56,442 bases of DNA from Candidatus Burarchaeum australiense (GCA_902386535.1 CABMJK010000024.1:1-56442), one strand, 5' to 3'; numbered from the stretch's first letter, positions 1,989-22,176 are shown. Made by a program: numbers and translations. Notes: generated by a model not told the origin, from the letters alone.

Positions 1989-2810
1989 TTATGTCTTTTG
2001 CAGGAAGTCCGAAACTGCTTTCAGGACTTCCTCTTTGCATTTGCCGTTTGTCGCGAGTATGCCGTTGGCAAGGCGGGGCGCAGAATAGTCCAGTGGCCGG
2101 CCCTTGAAGTCGAAGACCTGCCCGCCGGCCTCCTCCAGGATTGCCTGCGGCGCGCACATGTCCCATATTGAAAGCCCGCTGAAGTTCCAATAGAACTCCG
2201 CCCTTGCCTCGGCCATTTCAGCCAGCTTCACGCCTATGCTGCCTTTTTGCACCAGCGTGCCGTTGTCGAGGAAGCGGATGAAGACAGCGTCTTTTGCGGT
2301 AAAGTGGTTCTTGCTGTTTATGAGCCTGAACTCATTCAGGTGCGAGCGCGAAGAGGTATGCAAGTCGGCAACCTTCCCATCGGACTCCACGTGCGCGCCA
2401 TTGCCCTTTTCCGCATAATACGTTTTCCCAAGGGCAGGCAGATGCACCACGCCTAAGACCGGCTGCCTGCGCTCGAGAAGGCCGATCATGACCGCAAACT
2501 CGCCGGTCCTGCGCACGAAATCCATGGTGCCGTCGAGCGGGTCCACGACCCACATCTTGTCTTTCGGCAGTTCAGCCTCCGTTTGTTCCTCCTCGCTAAT
2601 CACCGCGTAGCCGGTCTTCTTCAGCCCGTCCAGAATTATGCTGTTCGAGGCCAAATCCGCCTTTGTGAGCTCGCTCCTATCAGGCTTGAGCTCGACCTTG
2701 CTGCCGGCCTTGGCATCGCTGGCGTAAATGCGCATTATTTCCTTGCCCGCATCGATGGCCAGAATTTTTGCGGCAAACAGGTCCTTTGAGAATTTCATTT
2801 CCAAAACCAT
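1989..2810 (-). CDS. cysQ: CysQ/inositol monophosphatase family 3'(2'),5'-bisphosphate nucleotidase
   Basis: TKAD, ISEE, VDPLDGT, GSIGVK, WDMCA motifs. Confidence 0.85.
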   Translation of the reverse strand: MVLEMKFSKDLFAAKILAIDAGKEIMRIYASDAKAGSKVELKPDRSELTKADLASNSIILDGLKKTGYAVISEEEQTEAELPKDKMWVVDPLDGTMDFVRRTGEFAVMIGLLERRQPVLGVVHLPALGKTYYAEKGNGAHVESDGKVADLHTSSRSHLNEFRLINSKNHFTAKDAVFIRFLDNGTLVQKGSIGVKLAEMAEARAEFYWNFSGLSIWDMCAPQAILEEAGGQVFDFKGRPLDYSAPRLANGILATNGKCKEEVLKAVSDFLQKT

Positions 2811-3463
2811 TTTCTGTCCACGAACGCGCGCATGAGCTTGTCATTGAACTCCGCGTCAGGCGACTCGCGCTCCGGGTGCCACATTATGCCGGCAATGGGC
2901 AGGCCGGGATGGTACGCGCCTTCCACCAGGCCGTCGGCCGTGACTGCAAAGGCCTTCAGGCCGCGGGCGAGTTCGCCCGTGTCGAATCCGAAATCATGGT
3001 AGGAGTTCACGGTCGTTCTTTTTTTCCCGAAATCCGCCTTTTCGCACTTGAGGAGTTCGACCGGGTGGAAGCTGGCAACGTGGTCTTTCACCATGCGCAG
3101 TTTTCCGCCGAAATAAACGTTCAGGAACTGCAGGCCACGGCACACGCACAGCACCGGCAGGCGCTCGGCTTCGGCGAATTGCAGCAGGGCCTTTTCGGTT
3201 GCGTCGCGCTCTTCAGCCACGTTGAGGCCCGCACTTTTGCTCACGCCGTAGAGTTCGGGATTGACGCTGTTGCCGCCCGAGAGAATCATGCCGTCCGGCT
3301 TGAGCTCCCGCAGGTAGGCAGGGATGTTGGGGAGCACGTTCGACACGGGCAGGAGGGTGAGGCCGAACGCACCGTAATATTGCACGTAGCTCTGCTCAAG
3401 GCAGTCGCGCCTCGCGCCCTTGTGCTCGGCGCACACCCGCTGCGATATCGCGATCCGCTTCAT
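2795..3463 (-). CDS. Class I glutamine amidotransferase (peptidase C26), probable gamma-glutamyl-CDP-amidate hydrolase (Cj1417-like)
   Basis: ILSGG, VCRG nucleophile elbow, NSYH, WHPER catalytic His-Glu. Confidence 0.85.
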   Translation of the reverse strand: MKRIAISQRVCAEHKGARRDCLEQSYVQYYGAFGLTLLPVSNVLPNIPAYLRELKPDGMILSGGNSVNPELYGVSKSAGLNVAEERDATEKALLQFAEAERLPVLCVCRGLQFLNVYFGGKLRMVKDHVASFHPVELLKCEKADFGKKRTTVNSYHDFGFDTGELARGLKAFAVTADGLVEGAYHPGLPIAGIMWHPERESPDAEFNDKLMRAFVDRKWFWK

Positions 3464-3482
3464 CGTTTCACCTGCAAACCAC

Positions 3483-4295
3483 TCACCAGGTCATGTTAAT
3501 GAACCTATTCATCGTGCCGTCAGCTATCCACGAAAGCGCCTTTTCGTAGTCTTCGTTGGTGTCGAACTCCAGCCACCCGTGCGAGGTGCGGACCGCCTTC
3601 ACGGGCACGCGCAGGTCGATGAGCGCCTGCAGCATGCACGTCATCTGCGCTTTCCTGAAGCACATGGAGTGCATCCAGGGCTCGTCGCTTTCCCATAGCT
3701 TTTTCTTGTTCTCATCGAACAAGCGGATGAATTCGGAAACGCCTTTTTTCGAGAAGCGCAGCATGCCGACATAGCGGGCCATTGCCTTTTCGAGAGGGCA
3801 GTTCGGCGCTCCCAGCTCCACGATGTTGTCCTTCTTGTCGATGGCCATGCTTTCAACGTCCTCCTTCCACTTTCCGCCCAGCCGCGCCTTCCAGTAGTCG
3901 AGCCAGTCATCGTCCACCAGCACGCCCATATCGCCCTTGAACGCCATCATCTTCTTCACCAGCGCAGGCTCGTAGAGGATGTCAGAATAAAGGACGAGCG
4001 CGCCGTCGGGCGAGCCGAGCAGCTCGCCGCGCGCCATCACCAGCGTGGCGACCATGTTCGTGGTTGCGTAGTCCGGATTAAGCATGTAGCTCACGCCGCG
4101 GACTTGCGGAATCTTGTCGGCCATGTAGCCGCGCACGACGACGATGTCGCTCTTGGGCACGCCGGCCTCGGCCAGGGCTTCGAGCTGCCGCTCAAGCAGG
4201 GTCTTGCCCCTGACCGAGAGCATGCACTTCGGCATGTCCTTGGTGTATTTGCCCAGGCGCGTGCCGCTGCCTGCCGCGAGGATTATCGCTTTCAT
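3483..4295 (-). CDS. LicC-like cytidylyltransferase, probable CTP:phosphoglutamine cytidylyltransferase (Cj1416-like)
   Basis: AIILAAGSGTRL..PKCM, NPDYATTNM, YSD, WLEFDT; gene context. Confidence 0.82.
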   Translation of the reverse strand: MKAIILAAGSGTRLGKYTKDMPKCMLSVRGKTLLERQLEALAEAGVPKSDIVVVRGYMADKIPQVRGVSYMLNPDYATTNMVATLVMARGELLGSPDGALVLYSDILYEPALVKKMMAFKGDMGVLVDDDWLDYWKARLGGKWKEDVESMAIDKKDNIVELGAPNCPLEKAMARYVGMLRFSKKGVSEFIRLFDENKKKLWESDEPWMHSMCFRKAQMTCMLQALIDLRVPVKAVRTSHGWLEFDTNEDYEKALSWIADGTMNRFINMTW

Positions 4296-4314
4296 GCTGG
4301 TTTGCCTCTTGAAA

Positions 4315-6681
4315 TTACATTACCGCTTTTATGTACTTCGACGCGCAGTTCAATTCCACTTTCCCGCAGCCCTTCACGAAGTTGAATAGCGTGGCCCCGC
4401 AGCCAATGGCAGCCGGCATCTTGAACTCGGCGGCCCTGATGGTCATGTGCGAGGCCGCGCCGCCGAACTCGGTTATCAGGCCTGCGATGTCGTGGCTGAA
4501 AATCCAGTCATAGCCCGGGTCGGCATTCTGGATGAGCACTATCTTGCCCGCCAGCTCGAGAGGCCTGGAGTTCGCGCTCAGGTCGAACACCTCGGCGCAG
4601 ACCGTCTTCTGCGTCACGTAGTTGGGCATCATGTCGGTCGAGGTGAAATATTCGACGCTCCGGTCCATGAAGATAAGGGGCGGGAAGCGGAAGAGCTTCA
4701 TCATCGCATAGGCATTCCTGTTCCTTCCGATTTTTTCCTTCATGCCCGCGAGCGAGTCGTGGATGCGCGAGGAATGCGAGAACTTCAGGATGTCGTCTAT
4801 CGTGAGGAAGGCCAGGTCCTCGCGCGAAAGCCCGTGCTTCGAAAGATACTGCTCGACGTACACGAGCATGAGGCTCAGGTTCTTCGTGAACTCGAGCTTG
4901 GACAGCTCGCGCGCCATTGTGGACTTGCGCACGAACGCGAGCAGCTGGTCGGCTGAGACCGAGAAACCGTGCGCCTTCAGCTCGGCGGATATTTTCTTCT
5001 TCGTCGCAGCGCTGAACTCGAAATCCTTCCCGCCCCGCGCGGGCTCGGTGAAGTTCTTCAGGTCGACGTAGCCGTCGAAGCTCTCGGCATAGGTGTGCGA
5101 GCAGATGTCGTAGGTGCCGGGCCTGAGGTGTCCGTATTCCTCCATGAACTGCCGCCGCGTAATCGCGCCCCGCTTGAGCTCGCCGAGCTTGTGCAGGAAG
5201 TCAGTGGCCACCGTGCTGATGGAGGCGAAGAACCGGTCGTACTCGTCCTGCGTGATGATTTTCTTGCGCAGCAGCGAGCGCATGAGCGCGGCGCTTATGA
5301 AGGCGAAGCGCGCGAGTTTGCTGAAGGGCAGCGTGCCGTACATCTTGCAATCGTGGCCCAGTTGCGCGATCTTGCTCGGCAGGGGTATGTCAGACGCGAC
5401 TATTTTCTCGCGCCTCTTCCGCATCTGCTCGGACAGCCCGACCTCGCGCTCGATGGAGGTCACGCGCCCGGCCAGTATGTCGTCCGTGAGAGTGAACAGG
5501 CACGATTTCATCTCGGCTATTTCGGCCTTGGAAAAACCTTCGGCCGCCATTTCCTTTTCTATTTCCCCGTAATCGAGAACGTAGCAGGTATAGACGACCT
5601 TGAACTCGACCTTGTCGTGGAAATCCTGGAAGCGGCGGAGCTTGCGCAGGTAGAAGTTCACGAGCTTTTCCGAAGTTGCGGCCGAGAGCGAGGCAGGCAG
5701 GAAGGTGTTGAAGCTCATGCGTATGTCGACGTAGGGCTTGCCCGCGAGCGAGCAGATGCCCGGCTGGTAGCCTATCGCCTTGTAGCCCACTTCCTCGCGC
5801 GCCTGCGGCCAGACGGTGTCCGTGATGAGGTGGCGGTAGAGAGAGAAGGCGAGCGGCTTCGGGTCGACGCCGATTATCTCCGCGGGATTCCAGTCGGGCA
5901 TTATCCCGTAGGCCACGTTGCTGCCCGCCAGGTTCGGGAACGGCCTGTCGTTTTCGCGCACGAAATCCTTCACGTGCTCGAGCGTGTCCCTGAATTCCTT
6001 GTCCGTGCAGACCTTCTGCTTTGCGATGGTTATGGGCCGCACCTGCAGGGTATGGAGCTTGTCGCCCGCAATCACGAACTCGATGTCCAGCGAGTCGCAG
6101 CCAGTCGCCTTTTCTATCTCGCGCACCGCCTCGATTACCTGCGCCATGTATTTGTCCGAGGGCGTGCGGCCGTAGAGCTTGCAATAGGTGAAAATCTTCT
6201 GCCTGCCGCTGGAGCCGGAAGTTATTACGTCGGTCCTGCCGCTCAGGTCGTCGTAGTTTATCACGTAATAGGGCGCGCCGGTCTCGAGGTCGCGCGTGAA
6301 GGCCACGCCACTCAGCTGCACCTTCCCGACTTGCTGCTGCACGAGAACCAGGTTTCCATCGTCGCTGTTCCTCTTTTCGCTGTAGCTGCCCACCACCTTC
6401 TCGACCGCGGCAGTTATGGCGGCCGGAGAGGCGGCGTCTACGTCAAGGACGCTCCTGAAGCAGCCGGCCATGGAGCTGGCCTGCGAGTCCTCGTTCAGCG
6501 CGCTGCTCCGCACGACTATCTTCTGCCCTTTCACGAACTTCGCCCGCACTTTCGCCACCGCGGCCGCGGCATCGGCCTTCCACTCGCGCACCGTAAAATG
6601 CAGGAGGGGCGGGATTTCGGACTTGCGGAGCCGGCCCTGCAGCCTCTCGAGGGTCTCGGCCTTGGTTGAGAATTCAAACAT
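4315..6681 (-). CDS. PEP-utilizing/PPDK-like kinase, probable L-glutamine kinase (Cj1418-like)
   Basis: TKAETL, VRSS..ED...SMAG, SGVAFT, DIEF..LQVRPI, MPDWNPAEIIG, ADPGYDWIF, GGAASHMTIRAAE phospho-His domain; about 788 aa from ATG 6681. Confidence 0.88.
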   Translation of the reverse strand: MFEFSTKAETLERLQGRLRKSEIPPLLHFTVREWKADAAAAVAKVRAKFVKGQKIVVRSSALNEDSQASSMAGCFRSVLDVDAASPAAITAAVEKVVGSYSEKRNSDDGNLVLVQQQVGKVQLSGVAFTRDLETGAPYYVINYDDLSGRTDVITSGSSGRQKIFTYCKLYGRTPSDKYMAQVIEAVREIEKATGCDSLDIEFVIAGDKLHTLQVRPITIAKQKVCTDKEFRDTLEHVKDFVRENDRPFPNLAGSNVAYGIMPDWNPAEIIGVDPKPLAFSLYRHLITDTVWPQAREEVGYKAIGYQPGICSLAGKPYVDIRMSFNTFLPASLSAATSEKLVNFYLRKLRRFQDFHDKVEFKVVYTCYVLDYGEIEKEMAAEGFSKAEIAEMKSCLFTLTDDILAGRVTSIEREVGLSEQMRKRREKIVASDIPLPSKIAQLGHDCKMYGTLPFSKLARFAFISAALMRSLLRKKIITQDEYDRFFASISTVATDFLHKLGELKRGAITRRQFMEEYGHLRPGTYDICSHTYAESFDGYVDLKNFTEPARGGKDFEFSAATKKKISAELKAHGFSVSADQLLAFVRKSTMARELSKLEFTKNLSLMLVYVEQYLSKHGLSREDLAFLTIDDILKFSHSSRIHDSLAGMKEKIGRNRNAYAMMKLFRFPPLIFMDRSVEYFTSTDMMPNYVTQKTVCAEVFDLSANSRPLELAGKIVLIQNADPGYDWIFSHDIAGLITEFGGAASHMTIRAAEFKMPAAIGCGATLFNFVKGCGKVELNCASKYIKAVM

Positions 6682-6724
6682 CGCTACCGCGGAGAATTCC
6701 GGCGGCAATCTTAAAAGCAGTTTC

Positions 6725-6814
6725 TGGCAGTTTGGAGGTTTTGGCAGTTCTGGAGGTTCTGGTGCTTTGGCGGTTCTGGCGGTTCGGCGCTTCGGCGCTT
6801 TGGCGCTTTGGCGG
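6725..6814. repeat. Degenerate tandem repeat, about 11 units of 8-9 bp (e.g. TGGCAGTT, TGGAGGTTC, CGGCGCTT)
   Basis: Units read directly: TGGCAGTT TGGAGGTTT TGGCAGTTC TGGAGGTTC TGGTGCTT TGGCGGTTC TGGCGGTT CGGCGCTT CGGCGCTT TGGCGCTT TGGCGG. Confidence 0.85.
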
Positions 6815-6816
6815 CC

Positions 6817-7947
6817 TTAGCGGTATTTCAGGTAGAGATAGCAGAAGCGCGCGTAAAGGAAGGCCTCCTCGGCCATGATGCCGGCATGGATGCCCAGCTT
6901 CAGCAGCGTGCGCACTACAGGCACCCTGGCGCAGGAATCGTAGGCACGCTGCAGCCCGGCGCGCTTGGGCTTCAGGAAGCGCATGGAGTGCAGGTCCAGG
7001 AACTGGGAGAAGAGCACGCGGTAATTCAGGGGAATCTTCTCGTGCGCGGGCCCGCCTTTTTCCGGCTCGTAGGGCTCGTAGCCGAACTCGTCCATTATGC
7101 CCTTCTGGAAGACATCCTGTATGTAGAAAAGTTCGAAGGGGCTGAGCTTCTGCTTCCAGTCGTCCTTCACGAACCGCGGGTCGGGCCGCGTGGAGGTGAG
7201 CTTGTTCGCCGAGAGCGGCCCGCTCTTGTTCGTGCCGTCCCATTTTTTCCCATAGTAGGTCGCATCGTCCATGCATGCATTGTCGGAAATGCCGAGGAAC
7301 GCGCACAGCTTTTTCCTCACCGAAGCATAGTGTCTGTGCAGGTCCTCGTGCCGCATGAAAAGGATTTCCCGCGGCCTGAAGGCATGGCGGTAAATGTGCA
7401 GCAGGAGCGAGGGCGCAAGTATGAAGCGGTAAGTCGGGAAGGAATCCGCGGTTTTCCTGCCCGAAAGCTGCGAGGCGCGGGGATCGCGCACCGTGATTAT
7501 GATCCTCTTCCTAGCCCAAAAAGCCCTGCGCGCGCGCAGCACGTCCTTGATTGCCGCGTGCGTGTGGAAGACGATCCACTTCACCCTCCGGAGGTCCTTT
7601 TTCCTCAGGACCGCGAGCGCGTAGTGCGTGCCTATGAATGCGGTTTTGTCGGAAAGGCCGAACGCCGAGACGTAGGCGAGGAAGTGCGGCTTGAACTGCT
7701 CGAAGCTGAAGGGGAACTCAAAGGGTGTGGCCTCGGCCCACATCGGATTGCGGGCGTAGCCGTAGGCGATGCGCGCCGCCTGCTCGGGCGTTGTGCCGGC
7801 CGGCAGTTCGGGATAGCGGGAGGTGAAGCCCTGCACGAGCTCAGGGTGGCGGTCAAGAAGGGCGTTTAGGAAAAGGCTGCTGGACCTGTTCAGGGGCTCG
7901 ATGAGCAGAAGGCCCATCTTTTCAGGCTCGAAATTGTGGAACTCCAT
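6817..7947 (-). CDS. Sulfotransferase-fold (P-loop) protein
   Basis: RSSSLFLNALLDRHPE resembles the RSGTTLL..LD.HP 5'-PSB loop; VRDPRA resembles the 3'-PB motif; RHEDL, LCAFLGI, WKQKLS..E. Confidence 0.7.
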   Translation of the reverse strand: MEFHNFEPEKMGLLLIEPLNRSSSLFLNALLDRHPELVQGFTSRYPELPAGTTPEQAARIAYGYARNPMWAEATPFEFPFSFEQFKPHFLAYVSAFGLSDKTAFIGTHYALAVLRKKDLRRVKWIVFHTHAAIKDVLRARRAFWARKRIIITVRDPRASQLSGRKTADSFPTYRFILAPSLLLHIYRHAFRPREILFMRHEDLHRHYASVRKKLCAFLGISDNACMDDATYYGKKWDGTNKSGPLSANKLTSTRPDPRFVKDDWKQKLSPFELFYIQDVFQKGIMDEFGYEPYEPEKGGPAHEKIPLNYRVLFSQFLDLHSMRFLKPKRAGLQRAYDSCARVPVVRTLLKLGIHAGIMAEEAFLYARFCYLYLKYR

Positions 7948-7976
7948 GCAGGTCTTTGACGCTTTCGGCGCACAAC

Positions 7977-7989
7977 TTATTATTTATAG
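7977..7989. promoter_or_regulatory. AT-rich divergent TATA region
   Basis: TTATTATTTATA between divergent starts at 7947 (-) and 8015 (+). Confidence 0.55.
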
Positions 7990-8014
7990 CTACCCAAAGG
8001 TGGCCGTGGTTTGG

Positions 8015-9220
8015 ATGGGGGAAACCGGAGGCGGCAGGGAAATCCGAGTTCTGATGGACTTCGGCGCCTCGGGCAGGCACCATTCGCTCTATGACGAGCT
8101 TCTGCAGGCGCCTCCGGAAGGCATCCGCTATGTCGTGCCCCGCCTGCCGGTGTCGCGGTTTCCGAAGGCAGCGGTGCACATCTATCACCGCATAAGGAGC
8201 GGGCTCGAGGGAAAGGTGGACCTGGCGGCGGTGGCGAGGCGCGTCAACCGCGCGGCCGCGGGAAGCGGGGCAGACCATGATGTCGTCCACTTCGCGAACC
8301 ACCTGGACCCGGCACGAGAGCCGTTCGTGGCAGATTTCGAGCAGGCCCTTTCCCTGCTTCACGCACCGACCGGCACGGGAAGGGTCGAGGCGGATTTCGC
8401 CCGTATCAGGGAGGCGCGGACCAGGCTCATGGAATCCGCCGAGTGCAAGTTCCTGCTTCCGTGGACCGAACAGGGCGCAAAGACGGTGTGGGCTGCCTTC
8501 CCGTCGGCAAAGATAAGGAAGAAGACAAAGGTCGTGAGGCTTGCCATGAGGGTGCCTGAGGAGCACAAGCCCATCAAGCACGACAAGTTCCGCGTGCTTT
8601 TCCTAGGCACGAGCAACCTGAGCGGAGAATGGAATTTCTACTATCGCGGGGGCCACCGGATGCTGAAGGTGTTCGAGAGATTCGCCAGGGGCAGGAAAGG
8701 CTCGGTTGAACTCGTGGTGACCGGCGAGATTCCGCAGCGCGAGCGGCCACTCACCGAGCGCATCGGGTGCTGCAGGGCGGCGGGGCTGCTCAGAAAGGAG
8801 GAAATGGGCCACCTGTTCAGGACTAGCGACGTGCTGCTCTATCCCGCCTACGCGACTCCGGGGCTCGCGTTTCTCGAGGCCATGCGCTACCACATGCCGA
8901 TAGCGACCACGGACGCGTGGGCCAACAGGGAAATAGTTGGCCACATGGAGAACGGCCTCGTGACTCCGTTCACGGAATTCAAAACGCGCGGGAAGTTCGG
9001 GCTTCCGCCAATGCTCGACGCGTTCATGGACTTCGAGCTCAACTGTTCGGACACCGGGCTGGAAAATGGCCTGGTGCAGTCCCTTGAAAAGCTCTACGGC
9101 TCGCCGCGCCTGAGGAGCCGGCTGGGCGAGAACGGCTTCAGGCAGGTGAGCGCCGGGAAGTGCAGCATAGGCGAGAGGAACCGCAGGCTCAGGAAAATAT
9201 ATGAGGCATGCCTGAGTTAA
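8015..9220 (+). CDS. Glycosyltransferase family 4
   Basis: SDVLLYP, GLAFLEAM, EIV...NG C-terminal GT-B motifs; start moved to ATG 8015. Confidence 0.8.
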   Translation: MGETGGGREIRVLMDFGASGRHHSLYDELLQAPPEGIRYVVPRLPVSRFPKAAVHIYHRIRSGLEGKVDLAAVARRVNRAAAGSGADHDVVHFANHLDPAREPFVADFEQALSLLHAPTGTGRVEADFARIREARTRLMESAECKFLLPWTEQGAKTVWAAFPSAKIRKKTKVVRLAMRVPEEHKPIKHDKFRVLFLGTSNLSGEWNFYYRGGHRMLKVFERFARGRKGSVELVVTGEIPQRERPLTERIGCCRAAGLLRKEEMGHLFRTSDVLLYPAYATPGLAFLEAMRYHMPIATTDAWANREIVGHMENGLVTPFTEFKTRGKFGLPPMLDAFMDFELNCSDTGLENGLVQSLEKLYGSPRLRSRLGENGFRQVSAGKCSIGERNRRLRKIYEACLS

Positions 9221-9238
9221 TGCGAGGGCGCTGGGCGC

Positions 9239-10243
9239 ATGGGGCGGGTCGATTGCATGGTGGATGCGAAAAAAACGGGCGCGGGGAAGAAAACCGGAAG
9301 GCCCATTGTCACCGTGGTCATGATAACCTACAACGGCGTGCGCTACATTGACGATGCGGTCGGGAGCCTGCTCGGGCAGAGCGACAGGAATTTCGAGGTC
9401 GTGATGCTGGACGACTGCTCCACGGACTCGACGCCCGAGAAGGTGCGGGAGGCCCGTGAGAAATTCCGGAAGGCGGGCATAGCGTGCCGGACTTTCAGGA
9501 ACGAGCGCAACCGCGGAACGGGTTACTCGTGGGATCGCGTCTCGAGGCTTTCCGAAACGCCCTGGATAATGTTCCTTGCGGACGACGACATGTACCTGCC
9601 GCGCAAGGTCGAGCGCACCCTGGGATTCATAAAAAGCCATCCGGCCGCGCCCTGGTTTTACCATGACGTGGTCATAATGAAGGAGGCGACCGGCGAGAAG
9701 AAGGGATACGCGATACCGCAGTTCAACACGGGCCGGGATTCCATGCGGCACTTCTTCGAGCTCGCGCTCGCGAATTGTTTCATGGTTCACAATGCGGTCG
9801 CCATAAGGAAGGACGTCTACGAGAAGGCGGGCGGCTTCAGGGACCTGCGCGGGGTCGAGGACTTCGACTTCTGGATGAGGCTCATCGAACAGGGCTTCCT
9901 GCCGCAGAAGATGGAGGGCGAGCCGCTTCTGGTCTACAGGAGCAGGGGCCTGGATGCGAGCCGCTTCCCCTACCAGAGCTACTACGGCTCCTTCGTGCAG
10001 GTGATGAACGATTTCCTCGACAGGCAGGGGCTGGCGAAGACTGCGGACCGGGAAACGCTGGCGCTTGCGCGCGAATTCAGGACCGGAATTTACATCGCAT
10101 ATTTGATGCGCTCGGCAAGGCGCGGGAACTTCTCGCTTGCGCTCAGGGCGTTCGGGGGCATGGTGAGGCGGGATTTCTCGCCCGTGCAGTTCGCGAAGAT
10201 GTCCGTTAACAAGTTTTCCAGGATATTCAAGGGCGAAAATTAG
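9239..10243 (+). CDS. Glycosyltransferase family 2
   Basis: VVMITYN, DDCSTD, FLADDD, GGF..VEDFDFW; start may be 9257. Confidence 0.85.
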   Translation: MGRVDCMVDAKKTGAGKKTGRPIVTVVMITYNGVRYIDDAVGSLLGQSDRNFEVVMLDDCSTDSTPEKVREAREKFRKAGIACRTFRNERNRGTGYSWDRVSRLSETPWIMFLADDDMYLPRKVERTLGFIKSHPAAPWFYHDVVIMKEATGEKKGYAIPQFNTGRDSMRHFFELALANCFMVHNAVAIRKDVYEKAGGFRDLRGVEDFDFWMRLIEQGFLPQKMEGEPLLVYRSRGLDASRFPYQSYYGSFVQVMNDFLDRQGLAKTADRETLALAREFRTGIYIAYLMRSARRGNFSLALRAFGGMVRRDFSPVQFAKMSVNKFSRIFKGEN

Positions 10244-10255
10244 TTCAGTTGCCCT

Positions 10256-10301
10256 TTCGGTTCATCGATTCATTTGTCCGTTCAGTTCATCGATTCATCT
10301 G
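10256..10301. repeat. Imperfect 21-bp direct repeat overlapping the aminotransferase stop codon
   Basis: TTCGGTTCATCGATTCATTTG (10256-10276) vs TTCAGTTCATCGATTCATCTG (10281-10301). Confidence 0.75.
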
Positions 10302-11443
10302 CCGACCTTCTTTCCGTGCGCATCGGCTGCGCGGGCCGTCGTCTCAACCACATAAGCTGTTTCCTCATCGGTCATGCCAGGCCAGATGGGCAGCGAAAGT
10401 ATGCGCCTCGCCAGCTTCTCGGTGCCGCGCAGCGGCGTCTTGCGGAAGGGCAGGTGCTCGGCATAGGCCTTCTGCTGGTGGCAGGGAATCGGGTAGTGGA
10501 TTTGGGCGCGCACGCCCGCATCGTTCAGCTGCTTGATGACCGCGTCGCGTATGGTTTCGTGCACCTGCACCACGAAGAGGTGGTAAACGTGGCGCCCGCC
10601 TGGGCGCTCGCGCTGGAGCCTCATCAGCGCGCGCTTTTCGAGTTCCCCGAGGCCGGCCACATATTTTTGCGCAATGGCGCGGCGCTGCTCGTTCCATTCG
10701 TGCATGCGCTTCAGCTTGGCAGACAGGAACGCGGCCTGGAGCCCGTCAAGGCGGGAGTTGAAGCCCAGCGAATCATGGTAGTATTTCACCTTTGAGCCGT
10801 AGTTGCGCATGGCCGCAACCGAGTCGGCGAGCGCGTCATCGTCAGTGCAAACTGCCCCGGCGTCGCCCAGGGCCCCGAGGTTCTTGCCTGGGTAGAAGCT
10901 GAAGGCCGCGGCCTTGCCAAAGGTGCCCGCATTCTTTCCGCCGAGGCTCGAACCGTGAGCCTGGCATGCGTCCTCGAGCAGGAGGAGGCCGTGCGCCTGC
11001 GCAATCTCGCCCAACCTGCCCATGTCCGCGCACTGGCCGTAGAGATGCACGGGCATGATGGCCTTTATTTTCTTGGACTTGGAAATCGCGCGCTCCACTG
11101 ATTCCGGCGCAAGGCAGTAGTATTCGTCGACCTCGGCGAAAACCGGCCTGGCACCTGCCAGCGTGACGGCGAACGGCGTGGCCACGAACGTGTGGGAAGG
11201 CACGACAACCTCGTCGCCCTTGCCTATGCCAAGCGCCCTGATCATGAGGACGAGGGCATCGGTGCCGCAGGCCACTCCGAGCGCGCGCTTGGCGCCCACA
11301 AATTTCGCGAACTCGGACTCGAAGGCCTCGACCTCCTTGCCAAGTATGAAGCCAGAACTTGAGAGCACGCGGCCGTAGGCCGCATCGAGCTCGGGCCGCA
11401 TGGCCTCGTGGATGCGCCCAAGATTAACAAAGGGAATTTCCAT
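10295..11443 (-). CDS. DegT/DnrJ/EryC1/StrS family sugar aminotransferase (PLP)
   Basis: IPFVNL, PVHLYGQ, EDACQAHG, SFYPGKNLGALGDAG, GFNSRLD. Confidence 0.93.
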   Translation of the reverse strand: MEIPFVNLGRIHEAMRPELDAAYGRVLSSSGFILGKEVEAFESEFAKFVGAKRALGVACGTDALVLMIRALGIGKGDEVVVPSHTFVATPFAVTLAGARPVFAEVDEYYCLAPESVERAISKSKKIKAIMPVHLYGQCADMGRLGEIAQAHGLLLLEDACQAHGSSLGGKNAGTFGKAAAFSFYPGKNLGALGDAGAVCTDDDALADSVAAMRNYGSKVKYYHDSLGFNSRLDGLQAAFLSAKLKRMHEWNEQRRAIAQKYVAGLGELEKRALMRLQRERPGGRHVYHLFVVQVHETIRDAVIKQLNDAGVRAQIHYPIPCHQQKAYAEHLPFRKTPLRGTEKLARRILSLPIWPGMTDEETAYVVETTARAADAHGKKVGR

Positions 11444-11458
11444 TTGATCACCGCATGC

Positions 11459-12463
11459 TTACGCGGAGCTCGAACCCTTCACCTGCTCGTTTATGCGCTC
11501 TATCAGGTCGGTAACCACGAGGCCGAAGGATATGTCGGTTTCGGGTTTCTTCCCGCTGCCGATGCAGTCAATGAAATGCGAGGCCATGTTGGCAAGCGGC
11601 TCGCGGGACTTTATGTACGGGATTATTGTCGAGCCAGGGTTGCATTGCACTACGAAGTCCATATAGGTGGCGGGCGCCTCGAGCGGCCCCTTTATCTCCT
11701 TCTCGTGCACCTCGACCTTGCCCGCAACCCTGACGTCGTCGAATTCCGCCATCTTCCTATCGCCCAGAATCATCACCTTGCGCAGCTTCACGGGCGAGAG
11801 CGAACTCACCATGAGCGTGACCGTCAGGTCGCCGTAATCGAGATAGGCAAAGGCCTCGTCCTCCACGCCCTTTATGAAATGGCTCTTGCCCACCGCGGTC
11901 AGCCTGCGGGGCTTGGCGGCCTTTTCGCCCAACCAGTAGACGAGCATCGAGACGTCGTGGGTCATCAGGTCCTCGACGACGTTCACGTCCCGCCGCAGGA
12001 ACTCGATTGCCTGCCGCTGGAACTGGAATGCGTGCAGGGTGCCCAGCTCCTGCTTGTCGAGCAGCGTTTTCAGGTAGCGCACGCTGTCCCCGTAGATGAA
12101 AGTGTAATCCACCATCAGCGTCAGTTTTTTCTCATGCGCGAGCTTCGCGAGCTCGCGTGCATCCTCCACGTTGGTGGTGACGGGCTTTTCGACAAGCACG
12201 TGCTTGCCGGCCTCGAGCGCGAGCTTGGCCAGTGCATGGTGGGTTTTGGGCGGCGTGGCGATTATGACCGCGTCCACGTCCGGCAGGACCTCTTCGAAGG
12301 AGGAAACCACTTTGATGAACGGATACTCCTCGGCCGCCCGCTCGCGCTTCTTCGCGTCCAGGTCGACGATGTAGCGGAGCTCGGCGCCCTTTGCCTTCGA
12401 GAAGTTCCTCGCGAGGTTGGGACCCCAATAACCGTAGCCCACGAGGACGAGCCTCACAGCCAT
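11459..12463 (-). CDS. Gfo/Idh/MocA NAD-dependent oxidoreductase (WlbA/WbpB-like sugar 3-dehydrogenase)
   Basis: VGYGYWG, IATPP..H, HVLVEKP, DLMTHD; true start ATG 12463. Confidence 0.88.
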   Translation of the reverse strand: MAVRLVLVGYGYWGPNLARNFSKAKGAELRYIVDLDAKKRERAAEEYPFIKVVSSFEEVLPDVDAVIIATPPKTHHALAKLALEAGKHVLVEKPVTTNVEDARELAKLAHEKKLTLMVDYTFIYGDSVRYLKTLLDKQELGTLHAFQFQRQAIEFLRRDVNVVEDLMTHDVSMLVYWLGEKAAKPRRLTAVGKSHFIKGVEDEAFAYLDYGDLTVTLMVSSLSPVKLRKVMILGDRKMAEFDDVRVAGKVEVHEKEIKGPLEAPATYMDFVVQCNPGSTIIPYIKSREPLANMASHFIDCIGSGKKPETDISFGLVVTDLIERINEQVKGSSSA

Positions 12464-12517: not shown

Positions 12518-13474
12518 ATGGCTGAAGGCCCTAAAATCGCGGTCATCGGAAACGGCACGATAGCGGTCGAGTGCTGCGCCCACCTGCTGGGCCTGGGCGA
12601 GAACGTCGCGTTCATAGTCGGAGACCACAAGGACGACGGGAGGGACGGCTGGCAGAAGTCTCTCGCGAAATTCGCGCGCGGGCACGACATCCCCTTCCAC
12701 CAGCCAGAGGGCATAAACGAGCAGAAGTGGTACGACTTCTTTGCAAAGGAGGCGCCGGACTTCCTGCTGTCTTTCCAATACCGGTTCATAATCAGGCGGC
12801 AGATAATCGGGAGCGCGCGAAAGCTGGCCGCGAACCTGCATTTCGCGCCCCTGCCCCGCTACCGCGGCATGTACCCTATAGCCTGGGCGCTGCTCAACGG
12901 CGAGAAGGAGTTCGGGGTCACGATACATGAGATAGACCCGGGAGTGGACTCGGGGGACATAATCGCGCAGAAGCTTTTTTCCGTCGAGGAAAGCGACACC
13001 GCGAGAACGCTTTACTTCAAGGCAGTCGAGAAAGGCGCCGAGCTTTTCCGCGAGGCGTGGCCCTCGATGCGCGGCATGAGCTTCAGACGCACCCAGCAGG
13101 ACCCGGCCAAGGCGCTCTACAACCCGAAGGGCTCGATTGATTTTTCCAGGAACCGCATGGACTGGTCGCTGCCGGCCGAGAAGGCGTTCAACTTCGCGCG
13201 CGCCTTCATCTTCGTGCCCTTCCAATTGCCCACCATGATGCATGAGGGCAATGAGCTGAAGATTGTGAGGGTGAGAAAGGCGGATGCAAAAGGCGGGAGC
13301 AGGACGGGGGCGAAGCCAGGCACCGTGCTTGCGGTTTCCGACGAGGGGGCGGAGGTTGCCTGCGGTTCGGGCTCGCTGGTCGTGGCGCTCACGGACGAAG
13401 TCTCCGAGCAGGTGCTGCCGCAGTGCGAGTTCATGAAAAAATATGGAATAAGGAAGGGGGCCTCGCTAGGCTGA
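12518..13474 (+). CDS. Fmt/ArnA-type formyltransferase, probably a sugar-nucleotide N-formyltransferase
   Basis: NLHFAPLPRYRG, GVTIHEID.GVDSGDI, C-terminal PGTV...VACGSG; true start ATG 12518. Confidence 0.85.
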   Translation: MAEGPKIAVIGNGTIAVECCAHLLGLGENVAFIVGDHKDDGRDGWQKSLAKFARGHDIPFHQPEGINEQKWYDFFAKEAPDFLLSFQYRFIIRRQIIGSARKLAANLHFAPLPRYRGMYPIAWALLNGEKEFGVTIHEIDPGVDSGDIIAQKLFSVEESDTARTLYFKAVEKGAELFREAWPSMRGMSFRRTQQDPAKALYNPKGSIDFSRNRMDWSLPAEKAFNFARAFIFVPFQLPTMMHEGNELKIVRVRKADAKGGSRTGAKPGTVLAVSDEGAEVACGSGSLVVALTDEVSEQVLPQCEFMKKYGIRKGASLG

Positions 13475-13483
13475 GCAACAGAC

Positions 13484-14203
13484 TCAAACCTGCTTGGACT
13501 TTCTCGCTATCGTGCTTGCGCGGTATAGGGACTCGAACGTGCCAGCGTCGGTCCAGTCGCCCTTCAGAAGGTGGAAGCCCAGCTTGTCGGCCTTCACGTA
13601 GTGGTTGTTAACGTCCGTAATCTCGTACTCGCCGCGCGCGCTTGGCTTGAGCGAGCGGATGACGCTGAAAACGGATGGCGAGTAGAGATAGAGGCCGATG
13701 ACCGCGTAGTTGCTCTTCGGCTTCGCGGGCTTCTCGATTATCGAGACTATTTTTTCGCCGCTGACTTCGGCCACCCCGAAGCGGTTGGCATCGGGCACGG
13801 CCTTGAGAAATACCACGGCCTCGTCCTTGCCCGCATCGAACGCGCGTATCGCGCCGCCCACGTCCTCGTCGATTATGTTGTCGCCCAGGATTACGGCGAA
13901 CTTCGAGCTGCCCGCGAAATCCTCGGCCAGCGAAAGGGCCTGCGCTATGCCGCCGCTCTCGTCCTGCAGCCTGTACGTGAGCCTGCACCCGAGGTCATGG
14001 CCGCTGCCGAGCAGCTTCATGAAATCGCCCGCGCTCTCCTTGCCCGTGACTATCAGGATGTCGGTTATGCCGGCCTTCAGCAGCGTGTTGAGAGGATACA
14101 AGATCATGGGCTTGTCGTAGACAGGCAGCAGGTGCTTGTTCGTAATTTCTGTGAGGGGCCTGAGCCTCGTGCCCGCCCCGCCTGCAAGAATCACTCCGCG
14201 CAT
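13484..14203 (-). CDS. rmlA: Glucose-1-phosphate thymidylyltransferase (short form)
   Basis: GVILAGGAGTRLRPLT..NKHLLPVYDKPMI, EKP, SARGEYEITD, WTDAGT; GGAGG RBS before ATG 14203. Confidence 0.88.
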   Translation of the reverse strand: MRGVILAGGAGTRLRPLTEITNKHLLPVYDKPMILYPLNTLLKAGITDILIVTGKESAGDFMKLLGSGHDLGCRLTYRLQDESGGIAQALSLAEDFAGSSKFAVILGDNIIDEDVGGAIRAFDAGKDEAVVFLKAVPDANRFGVAEVSGEKIVSIIEKPAKPKSNYAVIGLYLYSPSVFSVIRSLKPSARGEYEITDVNNHYVKADKLGFHLLKGDWTDAGTFESLYRASTIARKSKQV

Positions 14204-14230
14204 AGAATCAACCTCCACAAAATAATCACA

Positions 14231-14338
14231 CGCCATCAGTTCGTCTTTCCTTCCTCCTCCCGCGTTTTCATCATCGCCATCATCTCGCGCCATCAGTTCG
14301 TCTTCCCCTCTTCCTCCTGCTTTTTCATCACCATCAGC
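14231..14338. repeat. Imperfect tandem duplication (period about 57 bp) of the rmlD 3' end
   Basis: CGCCATCAGTTCGTCTT..CC..TTCCTCC.....TTTTCATCA occurs at 14231 and 14288. Confidence 0.75.
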
Positions 14339-15198
14339 CCGTGCTCCGAATTCAGAAGTTTCACGCCCGTCTCGTGCTCGGTCCTGGACACGTCGAGGCA
14401 GCCGTTCATGGGCCGGGCCGCGGCCTGGCGCAAGTCCGCTGTCTTGACGGGCGAGATCAGCGTGTCGTCCAGGCCAAAGACCTGCGCAGCCTTGAGCGCG
14501 AACTCGAACCTGCTCAGGCAGTCATTGCCCGTGACGTGCCAGAGGCCGGTCTTCTCGAGCTCCACCAGGCGCAGCAAAACTTCGGCCGCATTGTCGGCCA
14601 GCGTCGGCCCGTTGTACTGGTCGTCGACTATCTTGACCGGCTTGCGTGCGCGCAGCTCACCCAGCAGCCAGGTGACGAAATTCTTTTTCACCGGGTGCCA
14701 GCCGTAGATTACGCTCGTGCGCGCCACCAGGTTGTCCGCATCCATGCCCAGCAGCTCGCCCTCCGCAGTCGACTTGCTCTCGGCATAGACGCTCTCGGGA
14801 TTCGGCTCGTCCTCGGGCTTGTACTTGCCCCGCTTCTTCCCGTCGAAAACGTAGTCTGTTGACATGAACAAATACTGCGCGCCGATTTTCTCGCATGAGG
14901 TAGCAAGGTTCAGCGAGGCATCCACATTTATGAGCCTGGCTTTTGCCGGGTCGGTCTCGCACGCGTCAACCACGTGGAAGGCAGCTGTGTTGATGACTGC
15001 TTCGGGCTTCAGCTCGCGCACGAGCCTGCTGGCAGATTCCAAGTCAGCCACGTCAAGCAGATGGCCGGGCCCGGGGTGCCAGCTCGCGCCCGTGTGGTAA
15101 GTGTAGTCCACGCTGAACTTCCCGCTGGCGCGCGCCTTCTGCACGAGCCTGTTGCCGAGCAAGCCGAGGCCGCCGATTACGAGCAAGGATTTCATCAT
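14293..15198 (-). CDS. rmlD: dTDP-4-dehydrorhamnose reductase family
   Basis: GGLGLLG, VDACE, STDYVFDG, YAESK, DQYNGPT, AARP. Confidence 0.88.
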   Translation of the reverse strand: MMKSLLVIGGLGLLGNRLVQKARASGKFSVDYTYHTGASWHPGPGHLLDVADLESASRLVRELKPEAVINTAAFHVVDACETDPAKARLINVDASLNLATSCEKIGAQYLFMSTDYVFDGKKRGKYKPEDEPNPESVYAESKSTAEGELLGMDADNLVARTSVIYGWHPVKKNFVTWLLGELRARKPVKIVDDQYNGPTLADNAAEVLLRLVELEKTGLWHVTGNDCLSRFEFALKAAQVFGLDDTLISPVKTADLRQAAARPMNGCLDVSRTEHETGVKLLNSEHGLMVMKKQEEEGKTN

Positions 15199-17658: not shown

Positions 17659-18567
17659 ATGGGTGAAGTGCTTGCAGTCCAGGTCTCGGGCTTGGAAAAA
17701 TCCTACGGAAGCCACAAGGTGCTCAGGAACCTGTCGTTCGACATAAGGCAGGGCGAGATATTCGGCCTCCTGGGGCCCAACGGCGCGGGCAAGACAACGG
17801 CAATCAGGATACTTTTGAACATCATTAAGGCAGACGAAGGCGCCATTCAAATAGAGGGGGAGAAGTTCAGCGCCGTGCAGAGGGACAGGATAGGATACCT
17901 GCCGGAGGAGCGGGGCCTTTACCTTGAGCTTCGCGTGATGGACCAGCTGCTGTATTTTGCCGCGCTCAAGAATGCCGACCCGGCAAAGGCGAGGCGGAAC
18001 GCGGAAATGCTGCTGGAGCGCGTGGGGCTGAAGGAGTATGCAAAGAGCAAGGTCAATGAACTGTCCAAGGGAATGCAGCAGAAGGTGCAGTTCATCTCCA
18101 CCATAATCCACGACCCCGACCTCATAATACTGGACGAACCGTTCTCCGGCCTGGACCCGATAAATTCCAAGCTCATCAAGGACATGATACTGGAGCTCCG
18201 GGAGCTTGGGAAGACCGTGGTCCTGAGCACGCACCAGATGGAGCAGGTCGAGAGGATGTGCGACAGGATAGTGATGATAAACCGCGGCGACAGGGTGCTT
18301 TACGGCTCGCTGGAAGATGTCAAGGGAAATTACGGAAGGCACTCGCTCGTGGTCGGCTATGCGGGCGAGTTTCCGAAAAAGAAGATGGAGGGCGTGAAAA
18401 AGGCCGAGGTGTATGGGAACAGCGCGGAACTTGTGCTTGAAACGGGCGCCTCGCCGACTGCGGTGCTGGCCAGCCTCCTGAAGGAGAAGCTGGAAATAAC
18501 GAAGTTCGAGCTTACCGAGATGTCGCTCAACGAGATTTTCATATCCATAGTGGAGGGTTCGAAATGA
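17659..18567 (+). CDS. ABC-2 transporter ATP-binding protein (YhaQ/NatA-like)
   Basis: GPNGAGKTT, GYLPEERGLY, LSKGMQQK, LDEPFSGLD, STH. Confidence 0.92.
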   Translation: MGEVLAVQVSGLEKSYGSHKVLRNLSFDIRQGEIFGLLGPNGAGKTTAIRILLNIIKADEGAIQIEGEKFSAVQRDRIGYLPEERGLYLELRVMDQLLYFAALKNADPAKARRNAEMLLERVGLKEYAKSKVNELSKGMQQKVQFISTIIHDPDLIILDEPFSGLDPINSKLIKDMILELRELGKTVVLSTHQMEQVERMCDRIVMINRGDRVLYGSLEDVKGNYGRHSLVVGYAGEFPKKKMEGVKKAEVYGNSAELVLETGASPTAVLASLLKEKLEITKFELTEMSLNEIFISIVEGSK

Positions 18568-19799
18568 GCAAGCTCCTGAAAATCGCATTGCATGAATACC
18601 TGGCGCAGGTCCGGAGAAGGACGTTCCTGCTGGTCACCATCGGCATGCCCGCACTCCTGCTTTTCGTGGTGGGCATACAGATGTATGTCGCGGGCCAGGT
18701 CACGGCAAGCGAGCAGGCAGGCAACGTGGGCTTTGTGGATGGATCGGGGCTTTTCCAGTCCATTGAAGTTCCTGCGGGAATAAACCTCACATATTATGCA
18801 GGAGCGGAGCAGGCAACGGCGGCGTTGCTGGTAGGGAGCATAGACTACTACTACCTGGTCCCTGTGAATTACCTGAAAACGGGCGTGGTTGCCAGATTCT
18901 CGACAGAAAATGGATTTGCCGGAATCCTCAGCACAAGCAGCGCGAAAGGAGGGGATACCTGGATTCAGGACTCGCTTGCCAGCAAGCTCATGAAAGGGAA
19001 GCTTGACGACGAGACTGCGACCAGGGTTCTTGCGCCCGCCACGGTGGTGCCGCAAAGGCTTGATGCGAATGGAAAGCCGGTGAGCGAGAACCTGCTCCAG
19101 ATTGCATTACCCATTGCTTTCGCAGTCGCGTTCCTCATAGCCATATTCATGACTTCTGGTTACCTGCTGCAGGGCATAGTTGCGGAAAAGGAGAACCGGG
19201 TCATGGAGGTCCTGCTTTCCTCGGTTTCCACGACCGACCTCATGGCGGGAAAGATAATCGGGCTGGGCGCCGCCGGGCTTACCCAAATACTGGTGTGGGC
19301 GGTTGCGGGAATCGTTTTGGTGTTGAACTTCGTGCCCGGAAGTGCCGGCGTTGGGGCGCTCTTTGCAGGAATGCCAATACCATACCTGAACCTGCTGCTC
19401 GTGCTTGTTTATTTTGTTCTCGGCTATGTGCTGTTTGCGAGCGTATATGCCAGTGTGGGCGCCATCTCGACTTCGATGCGGGAGGGGCAGCAGGTCGCCG
19501 GCTTCTTTGCGTTCCTGTCCATAATTCCGATATATTTCATACCCATAATGCTGAAAGAGCCGGACGCGCTCCTCGCCATTGCATTCTCCCTTTTCCCGTT
19601 CACGTCGCCCCTGACGATGGTAATCAGGACTTCGCTTTCAGATGTCCCGCCGCTCGAGATCCTCGCCAGTCTCGGAATCCTGATGGTAACCATAGTGGCA
19701 ATAGTCTGGGCTACGGGGAAGATTTTCAAGATGGGGAGCCTGACCTATGGCAAGAGGCCCGACTTCAGGAGGATTCTGGCGGCGCTCAGGGAAGACTAA
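18564..19799 (+). CDS. ABC-2 transporter permease (YhaP/NatB-like)
   Basis: EKENRVMEVLLSS, GKIIG, multiple TM segments, ATGA overlap with the ATPase gene. Confidence 0.9.
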   Translation: MSKLLKIALHEYLAQVRRRTFLLVTIGMPALLLFVVGIQMYVAGQVTASEQAGNVGFVDGSGLFQSIEVPAGINLTYYAGAEQATAALLVGSIDYYYLVPVNYLKTGVVARFSTENGFAGILSTSSAKGGDTWIQDSLASKLMKGKLDDETATRVLAPATVVPQRLDANGKPVSENLLQIALPIAFAVAFLIAIFMTSGYLLQGIVAEKENRVMEVLLSSVSTTDLMAGKIIGLGAAGLTQILVWAVAGIVLVLNFVPGSAGVGALFAGMPIPYLNLLLVLVYFVLGYVLFASVYASVGAISTSMREGQQVAGFFAFLSIIPIYFIPIMLKEPDALLAIAFSLFPFTSPLTMVIRTSLSDVPPLEILASLGILMVTIVAIVWATGKIFKMGSLTYGKRPDFRRILAALRED

Positions 19800-22015: not shown

Positions 22016-22176
22016 ATCACCGATTCAATGGTTCTCTGGAGGAAGCCGCGCAGGGGCGGCCAGGACAGGATGAGGAAGAGCCAGTAGAGCGTGAAGCCGG
22101 CGTAGGCCAGCGCGAGCAGCTGCGCATCGCTGAGCTTCTTCAGCGAAGAGGAGATGTTGCTGATTTTCTCACCCAT
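22012..22176 (-). CDS. Small 54-aa membrane protein (below the ORF-track cut-off)
   Basis: MGEKISNISSSLKKLSDAQLLALAYAGFTLYWLFLILSWPPLRGFLQRTIESVI; fills the gap exactly, overlaps the upstream stop and has an ATGA overlap with the downstream GT4. Confidence 0.7.
   Translation of the reverse strand: MGEKISNISSSLKKLSDAQLLALAYAGFTLYWLFLILSWPPLRGFLQRTIESVI

Follow-up and report, generated by a model that had tools for sequence, protein, structure and literature searches.

What does a protein with the fold of a sulfotransferase do in an archaeal operon whose other genes resemble those for a Campylobacter phosphoramidate donor? The question is raised by positions 5-7947 of contig 24 of Candidatus Burarchaeum australiense (GCA_902386535.1 CABMJK010000024.1:1-56442), whose 56,442 nucleotides (nt) are called the window in the following. 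The assembly comprises 1.20 Mb in 68 contigs and is 91% complete with 5.4% contamination. The protein in question, P0001, probably attaches phosphoramidate, not sulfate, to cell-surface sugars. The explanation which we favour, and consider rather likely, is that the operon builds 3'-phospho-cytidine-5'-diphosphoramidate (3'-phospho-CDP-amidate), that P0001 transfers the phosphoramidate group and that a CysQ-type phosphatase, P0002, recycles the cytidine 3',5'-bisphosphate (pCp) left behind. A sequence-only reading of the region 1989-7947 had proposed that the toolkit of sulfation, i.e. kinase, transferase and nucleotidase, has been repurposed for phosphoramidate. Comparative genomics supports this proposal, while the new activity of the fold stays a prediction.

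From position 5 to position 7947 the minus strand encodes eight consecutive open reading frames (ORFs) in head-to-tail order, which form one operon; their products were assigned with Pfam and NCBIfam profiles. Neighbouring ORFs overlap by up to 16 nt or lie up to 22 nt apart, with the exception of the 108 nt which follow the first gene. This first gene (6817-7947) encodes P0001, 376 amino acids (aa) long and a candidate (methyl)phosphoramidate transferase. The second (4315-6708) encodes a 797-aa L-glutamine kinase of the Cj1418 type, comprising PPDK_N and PEP-utilizers domains and matching NF004508/PRK05849 over its full length (856.8 bits, cut-off 501). The sequence-only reading had placed a sulfotransferase-like protein with an RSSSL loop directly upstream of the glutamine kinase, which is what the ORF coordinates give.

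The following two genes are candidates for the next steps of donor synthesis. The MobA-like nucleotidyltransferase (3483-4295), for which only the general model NTP_transf_3 (E 8.7e-15) and no specific model matched, is a candidate CTP:phosphoglutamine cytidylyltransferase in the role of Cj1416; its gene stands beside the kinase and hydrolase genes in archaeal and bacterial loci alike (26-59% identity). The class-I glutamine amidotransferase-like hydrolase (2795-3463; Peptidase_C26, E 6.4e-30) could take the role of Cj1417. Its top NCBIfam match is the gamma-glutamyl-CDP-amidate hydrolase model NF045546, with 87.8 bits below the cut-off of 250, and its gene adjoins the kinase gene in the archaeal loci as well as in five bacterial loci. 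Between this gene and that of an APS-kinase-like protein lies P0002 (1989-2810, 273 aa; Inositol_P, E 3.2e-51), a CysQ-type 3'(2'),5'-bisphosphate nucleotidase and candidate pCp 3'-phosphatase, so that the CysQ which had been noted inside the operon is indeed found there.

The APS-kinase-like protein itself (1458-1988) has the fold of adenylyl-sulfate (APS) kinases and is of the Cj1415 type, which makes it a candidate cytidine diphosphoramidate 3'-kinase. It scores 151 bits with NF004041 (cut-off 127), a model which we take to include Cj1415 itself, and 81 bits with TIGR00455, the model for true APS kinases, under the cut-off of 138.7. The same pattern, NF004041 above and TIGR00455 below cut-off, was found for all six kinases compared, of which five belong to archaeal or bacterial glutamine-kinase clusters and one to the metagenome contig L032. 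A class I S-adenosylmethionine (SAM) methyltransferase (653-1435; Methyltransf_11, E 1.6e-16) is a candidate O-methylase of the phosphoramidate; homologues are present in two of the related archaeal loci (G138 and G243), beside a paralogue of P0001 in a third genome (G002) and in two bacterial loci. The last gene of the run (5-649; Glycos_transf_2, E 6.2e-27) encodes a GT2 glycosyltransferase, which we infer to belong to the module from one argument, its position 3 nt after the methyltransferase gene.

The archaeal operon thus has genes or candidate genes for the same four donor-building steps as the O-methyl phosphoramidate (MeOPN) system of Campylobacter jejuni (Cj1418, Cj1416, Cj1417, Cj1415), together with a SAM methyltransferase. 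In contrast to C. jejuni, the host is an archaeon, the genes lie in an N-glycosylation island and the module includes sulfotransferase-fold and CysQ-type proteins.

The assignment of P0001 to the sulfotransferases is weak at the level of single profiles. Sulfotransfer_1 reaches 24.7 bits (E 1.8e-5, cut-off 22), Sulfotransfer_3 stays below its cut-off (E 2.1e-4) and no NCBIfam model matched. A HMMER search of 1.84 billion representative sequences returned 174 matches at E<=1e-3, of which 47 have E<=1e-10 and 29 E<=1e-30. Forty of these matches (alignment A1) were used for the AlphaFold2 model and for the residue counts given as x/40. The model is of high quality (pLDDT 94.3, pTM 0.92), and Foldseek found 37 matches in the PDB at E<=1e-3, which are sulfotransferases throughout among the matches listed. 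With VIA-align the highest Z score, 15.8, is reached with the sulfotransferase domains of CurM/OLS (4gbm, 4gox; 4gbm with rmsd 4.2 and 239 aligned residues), followed by tyrosylprotein sulfotransferases (TPSTs; 14.3-14.9, among them 5wrj with 14.9 and 3ap1) and by heparan sulfate 3-O-sulfotransferases (about 12-13). By the span of these matches residues 1-295 form the sulfotransferase domain, and residues 296-376 are a helical tail outside the fold. The tails of 22/40 family members include a hydrophobic stretch (Kyte-Doolittle mean >=1.6 over 19 residues), whereas the tail of P0001 reaches only 1.07.

The family profile also detects TPST1 (E 8.5e-12), and the 5' loop, the HP motif and the 3'-phosphate motif are aligned. 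In the loop 'plgRsSSvFfqgLLDgHpei' is paired with 'gvpRSGTTLMRAMLDAHPDI', in the second motif 'VRDPRAsflS' with 'VRDGRASVHS'. From the structure of TPST2 we take these two TPST stretches to be the 5'-phosphosulfate loop and the 3'-phosphate motif. P0001 carries the latter as R154-D-P-R-A-S-Q-L-S162, with R154 present in 40/40 members, D155 invariant and S162 in 35/40; judged by these residues the 3'-phosphate site is intact. The predicted structure therefore agrees with the fold that had been assigned from sequence. The 5' loop is N20-R21-S22-S23-S24-L25 and departs from the canonical [KR]-[ST]-G-[ST]-[ST], although its basic residue is kept in 40/40 members (R in 35, K in 5). A histidine, H130, is found in 39/40 members, 24 residues ahead of R154; presumably the same spacing separates the catalytic His108 from Arg130 in SULT1E1, a cytosolic sulfotransferase. 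The position which we take to hold the catalytic glutamate of TPSTs is not conserved in the family.

The 151 retrieved matches were aligned to the family profile, and the 45 closest (E<=3e-21, plus P0005) were regarded as the core family. The loop is covered by 41 of these core sequences; 38 of them have Ser at its third position, and the other three have Gly. The variants are RSSS (16), RASS (12), KSSS (3), RAST (3), RSSV (2), KASS (1) and RVSS (1). Of the other 106 matches, 94 include the loop, with Gly at this position in at least 71 (RSGS in 32, RAGS in 14, and others). Therefore, the altered loop is a trait of the family which separates it from generic sulfotransferases. H200-E-D-L-H204, W264 and Y290 are likewise common to the 45 core sequences and are not seen in the distant matches. 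P0001 thus shares the fold of the TPSTs and CurM/OLS domains, which use 3'-phosphoadenosine-5'-phosphosulfate (PAPS), with Z scores of 14.3-15.8 over about 225-239 residues; its family differs from them in the R-[SA]-S-S loop, in its own HEDLH, W264 and Y290, in the hydrophobic tail of many members and in carrier genomes in which no PAPS pathway was found.

The core family amounts to about 45 clusters at 50% identity; the members whose genomic context has been seen to date all come from archaea with small genomes. Word-indexed protein searches gave two proteins for P0001 and, with the profile, eight at near lengths and none among longer proteins, all without informative names. One short contig matched in a scan of genome contigs; no family member was found in a scan of viral contigs, and none when P0001 was searched against plasmids. 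Among sequencing runs, one DNA run shares a small part of the sequence words, and no RNA run was among those listed.

One argument for a role in phosphoramidate metabolism comes from linkage in the phylum, for which 401 genomes were searched with the family profile and with NF004508, whose matches over the cut-off were counted as glutamine kinases. The family profile has matches at E<=1e-10 in seven genomes, and strong ones (1e-96 to 1e-119) only in the genome of the window (G000), in G002, a relative at the level of the family, and in G138 and G243. Glutamine kinase was found in 4/401 genomes, which are exactly these four, and a class-level sample returned the same four again. An overlap of four for four has a chance of about 9e-10 if the genomes are independent; they are not, but they represent three taxonomic families. 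The distance between the two genes is 108 nt in the window, about 0.1 kb in G002, where the gene is split over two contigs, 2.1 kb in G138 and 3.6 kb in G243. This is the co-occurrence with Cj1418 homologues that the repurposing idea called for.

All three complete loci (G000, G138, G243) share a set of seven genes whose order varies: those for the sulfotransferase-fold protein, glutamine kinase, cytidylyltransferase, hydrolase, CysQ-type protein, Cj1415-type kinase and methyltransferase. The CysQ-type gene immediately precedes the Cj1415-type kinase gene in each of them. Identity to the window proteins is 52% (G138) and 68% (G243) for the glutamine kinase, 54% and 59% for the Cj1415-type kinase, 42% in both for the CysQ-type phosphatase and 40% and 31% for the sulfotransferase-fold protein. 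The latter is the least conserved of these and therefore the fastest-evolving part, as expected of the component that reads the acceptor. Two subgroups of the family (31-58% identity) are both linked to the kinase. All five linked copies have the loop [RK]-S-S-S. One of them, from the split G002 gene, comprises only the N-terminal half and does not extend as far as HED[LI]H, which the other four all have. G002 also encodes a second copy (47-48% identity), whose gene comes immediately after one for a methyltransferase 70% identical to that of the window. The module is patchily distributed. G001, from the same genus, lacks both genes, and the kinase was found in only one of 42 genomes of the family of G243.

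The second protein of interest, P0002, has its top NCBIfam match with TIGR01331; its orthologues in G138 and G243 score 149 and 171 bits on the same model, likewise below its cut-off. Among proteins of solved structure CysQ (3b8b) is closest to P0002, with E 2.5e-31 compared with 4.3e-23 for the best inositol monophosphatase. Only one other Inositol_P gene was found in the genome, which is of the fructose bisphosphatase/inositol monophosphatase (FBPase/IMPase) type and reaches 41 bits on the CysQ model. Since the P0002 gene abuts that of the 3'-kinase in genomes where no sulfate assimilation was detected, pCp would be the expected substrate rather than adenosine 3',5'-bisphosphate (pAp, or PAP). 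In comparison with known CysQ proteins P0002 belongs to the same Inositol_P family and differs in its score below the cut-off and in its place upstream of a cytidine-nucleotide kinase. In the 657-aa protein P0091, a distant family match (E 1e-5), a CysQ-type domain (13-241) is naturally fused to a sulfotransferase domain (281-532).

If the archaeal proteins act as proposed, it has to be asked how bacteria with related clusters manage the transfer. Full-length homologues of the glutamine kinase were found by tblastn on 14 plasmids, seven of which were inspected, and in none of these seven loci could a member of the P0001 family or a CysQ homologue be identified within 10 kb. In two of them, on an Azospirillum plasmid and on the Smac51 plasmid, an NF004041-type kinase and a methyltransferase are present. 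The Azospirillum locus contains an 838-aa protein annotated as adenylyl-sulfate kinase (L039:6672-9188), in which a region of about 650 residues is fused to a Cj1415-type kinase domain; its gene directly precedes those for the methyltransferase, glutamine kinase, hydrolase and cytidylyltransferase. The N-terminal region, a candidate for the bacterial phosphoramidate transferase, shows weak similarity to a 597-aa 'glycosyltransferase' encoded next to it. In Smac51 the cluster is flanked by two paralogous 413-aa proteins (L041:8664-9905 and 13860-15101; 28% identical), which recall the paired transferases of Campylobacter, and two B12-radical-SAM proteins of about 620 aa come next. When the family profile was compared with three of the bacterial neighbour proteins by hhalign, the probability was at most 0.2%, with single-sequence templates that give this comparison low power.

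Three other bacterial loci (L040 from Vibrio, L042 from Pseudohalocynthiibacter and L044 from Agrobacterium) contain only the kinase, hydrolase and cytidylyltransferase, without 3'-kinase and methyltransferase. Their neighbours are a TagF-like protein in Vibrio, a CDP-alcohol phosphatidyltransferase in Agrobacterium and only a 410-residue gene upstream in Pseudohalocynthiibacter; the first two suggest that CDP-amidate may be used directly there. The kinases of Vibrio and Pseudohalocynthiibacter share an N-terminal extension of about 200 residues. In the remaining two loci the kinase homologue stands alone.

These observations bear on the first alternative, in which another protein of the island, glycosyltransferase-like or of the type of Cj1421/Cj1422, which we take to be the MeOPN transferases of Campylobacter, transfers the phosphoramidate. 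P0001 would then present, hydrolyse or regulate the nucleotide, or modify a non-glycan acceptor. Bacterial clusters that share the kinase and the methyltransferase do carry other proteins in place of P0001, namely the Azospirillum fusion and the Smac51 pair, and the paralogue in G002 that directly follows a methyltransferase gene would fit a presentation of the nucleotide to that enzyme. However, no further unassigned gene is common to the three complete archaeal loci, and P0001 keeps the residues of a transferase, i.e. the loop Arg/Lys, His130 and the pair R154/S162. The two diverged copies in G002 moreover resemble the paired transferases of Campylobacter, which are presumably acceptor-specific. 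We therefore regard this alternative as unlikely. It seems that each lineage has recruited its own protein for the transferase step, and the solution with a sulfotransferase fold is so far found only in these archaea.

A further group of relatives was met in a metagenome scan with the smaller alignment A3, which returned only a distant sister group of the family (E 1e-29 to 1e-33; L032:7774-11075, L037:2438-5736 and L033:5859-8645; GC content about 25%). Its members have the loop G-R-G-G-S and the motif R-H-P-x-A-S-x-x-S, and their genes always follow a truncated pyruvate-kinase-barrel gene. An NF004041 kinase gene comes after the sister-group gene in two of the six longer contigs, the seventh locus being a 1.3-kb fragment. 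No glutamine kinase was found on these contigs, which are 9-13 kb long. The sister-group loci may represent a second kind of system for a 3'-phospho-nucleotide donor.

The second alternative is that P0001 is an ordinary PAPS-dependent glycan sulfotransferase of a decoration island, in which CysQ clears PAP and PAPS comes from a host or from genes that were not assembled. It would be in line with the PAPS-enzyme fold and the 3'-phosphate motif of P0001, with the occurrence of CysQ-sulfotransferase fusions such as P0091 and with the small size of the genomes, about 1.2 Mb; archaea with such small genomes often depend on a host. The sequence-only reading had noted that ATP sulfurylase is absent from the window, and this extends to the whole genome: neither ATP sulfurylase (PF01747) nor CysD (TIGR02039) could be found in G000, G002, G138 or G243, which are 86-91% complete, while the controls in well-known genomes were positive. 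The kinase of the cluster is the sole APS_kinase-family match in G000. A canonical APS kinase was not found in the three genomes searched for this family (G000, G138, G243); in G138 and G243 the cluster kinase is by a wide margin the best match and the others are fragments of about 20 bits.

How a sulfation module looks in these archaea is illustrated by G393, a genome of the same class in which the family profile detects only a generic sulfotransferase (E 8e-16) and no glutamine kinase was found. The sulfotransferase gene of G393 has genes for a canonical APS kinase and a CysNC-like protein as neighbours, with a CysD-like gene on a different contig. The module is located at L050:2-2422, G393:C11:2761-3534 and L053, with the generic sulfotransferase gene in convergent orientation. 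The APS kinase of G393 reaches 229 bits with PF01583, compared with 75-103 bits for the cluster kinases. Therefore, real sulfation modules are detectable in these genomes and look different. The logic is the same in both cases, an activating enzyme, a 3'-kinase and a sulfotransferase-fold transferase side by side, but the operon of the window lacks CysNC, CysD and a canonical APS kinase and has a glutamine kinase and a member of the Ser-loop family instead. As strong family matches were moreover found only where a glutamine kinase occurs, at most 3.6 kb away, and the donor loop is systematically unlike that of generic relatives, an ordinary sulfotransferase is quite unlikely.

Several points weigh against phosphoramidate transfer by P0001 and have to be kept in mind. 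The linkage comes from four genomes, compared with about 45 clusters in the core family. With carriers that are 86-91% complete the absence of sulfate activation is not proven. As the P0001 family was not found in bacterial clusters with the same Cj1415-type kinase, the chemistry does not depend on a sulfotransferase fold. The spacing to R154 is the one argument for His130 as catalytic base. P0002 reaches 175 bits with TIGR01331, below the equivalog cut-off of 228.8, and CysQ alone does not discriminate between the two donors because CysQ beside or fused to ordinary sulfotransferases occurs, as in P0091.

The nature of the acceptor is suggested by the surroundings of the operon. The first 36 kb or so of the window form a glycosylation island that contains the phosphoramidate operon, an ABC-2 exporter pair (17659-19799), two GT-C proteins of the PMT_2 type (22169-24028 and 29230-30882), an STT3/AglB oligosaccharyltransferase (31958-34693) and a cis-prenyltransferase (36031-36723). 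Many glycosyltransferases as well as RmlA/RmlD-like proteins, a DegT aminotransferase, a formyltransferase and a UDP-glucose dehydrogenase are also encoded. Since the operon lies inside an island with an oligosaccharyltransferase, glycosyltransferases and a cis-prenyltransferase, a lipid-linked surface glycan or an N-glycan would be the likely acceptor. The third alternative, a different phosphoramidate product such as a small molecule or a lipid head group to which P0001 would transfer, could draw on the varied bacterial contexts of the glutamine kinase, near TagF-like or CDP-alcohol phosphatidyltransferase genes or alone, yet it is very unlikely for an operon embedded among AglB/STT3, GT-C proteins, glycosyltransferases, sugar-nucleotide enzymes and a cis-prenyltransferase, the more so as the G138 locus opens with a polysaccharide flippase-like gene.

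Some further features of the island were noted. Two minus-strand ORFs upstream of the operon, at 7922-8581 and 8603-9790, are considered spurious, as they have no family matches, are rich in Arg, Pro and His and run antisense to glycosyltransferase genes; the plus strand there encodes a GT1 (7823-9220) and a GT2 (9239-10243) protein, divergent from the operon, in DNA of 60% GC. Between 11408 and 13474 long ORFs overlap on both strands, and domain matches point to the minus strand for a GFO/IDH/MocA oxidoreductase (about 11459-12460) and to the plus strand for the formyltransferase (about 12536-13474). Together with the DegT aminotransferase (10295-11443) and the RmlA-like genes these suggest a formamido-deoxy sugar in the glycan.

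Phosphoramidate transfer by P0001, to which we now return, could proceed as follows. Glutamine kinase, cytidylyltransferase, hydrolase and 3'-kinase would in turn yield 3'-phospho-CDP-amidate, as in Campylobacter, and this compound or its O-methylated form would be the donor for P0001. The donor would resemble PAPS in being a 3'-phosphorylated nucleoside 5'-phosphate with an anhydride link to a tetrahedral group. Arg154 and Ser162 are predicted to grip the 3'-phosphate, and the R-S-S-S loop the 5'-phosphate and the oxygen of the leaving group; His130 probably activates the sugar hydroxyl. The Gly-to-Ser change and the extra histidines would be placed where the transferred group lies. Phosphoramidate would thereby pass to the glycan of the surrounding N-glycosylation island and pCp would leave, to be converted by the CysQ-type phosphatase to cytidine monophosphate (CMP), which would relieve product inhibition. 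The methyltransferase may add the O-methyl group before or after the transfer.

Parts of this scheme are known from other systems. Taylor and Raushel reportedly described the Campylobacter pathway in 2017-2018 and are said to have established the product of Cj1415 as a PAPS analog in 2018; the PAPS analogy itself is therefore not new. The route from glutamine to 3'-phospho-CDP-amidate in Campylobacter is given in a preprint and in reviews. According to a further paper (PMC11800397), 3'-phospho-CDP-amidate is only the 'likely donor', and Cj1419 and Cj1420 were unassigned as of 2025. The portion of the Borg preprint at hand describes phosphoramidate-pathway genes in archaeal extrachromosomal elements, and no transferase is named there. 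No paper that combines 'glutamine kinase' with 'sulfotransferase' was found in the literature search, and among the listed papers that name Cj1421 none mentions a sulfotransferase. The proposal would accordingly join a known pathway to a fold that is itself known but has not been described in such a role.

The transfer of phosphoramidate from a 3'-phosphorylated cytidine donor has not been demonstrated biochemically even in Campylobacter. A candidate with a sulfotransferase fold would explain why the donor is 3'-phosphorylated, and the CysQ-type protein would be the matching recycling enzyme. Both are small proteins with soluble domains, and the donors can be obtained by published enzymatic routes. 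We tentatively go one step further, at slightly less than even confidence, and suggest that the core family with its signature of R-[SA]-S-S and HEDLH comprises the first sulfotransferase-fold enzymes which move a non-sulfuryl group, that a phosphatase dedicated to pCp accompanies them and that methyl-phosphoramidate occurs on archaeal N-glycans. The sister group beside Cj1415-type kinases hints at a wider chemistry of 3'-phospho-nucleoside-diphospho-X donors in parallel to PAPS. If P0001 indeed transfers phosphoramidate, the catalytic range of the sulfotransferase fold would be widened, and the Gly-to-Ser loop together with HEDLH would serve as an annotation signature which separates such enzymes from sulfotransferases. 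For archaea, it would be the first evidence for phosphoramidate glycans.

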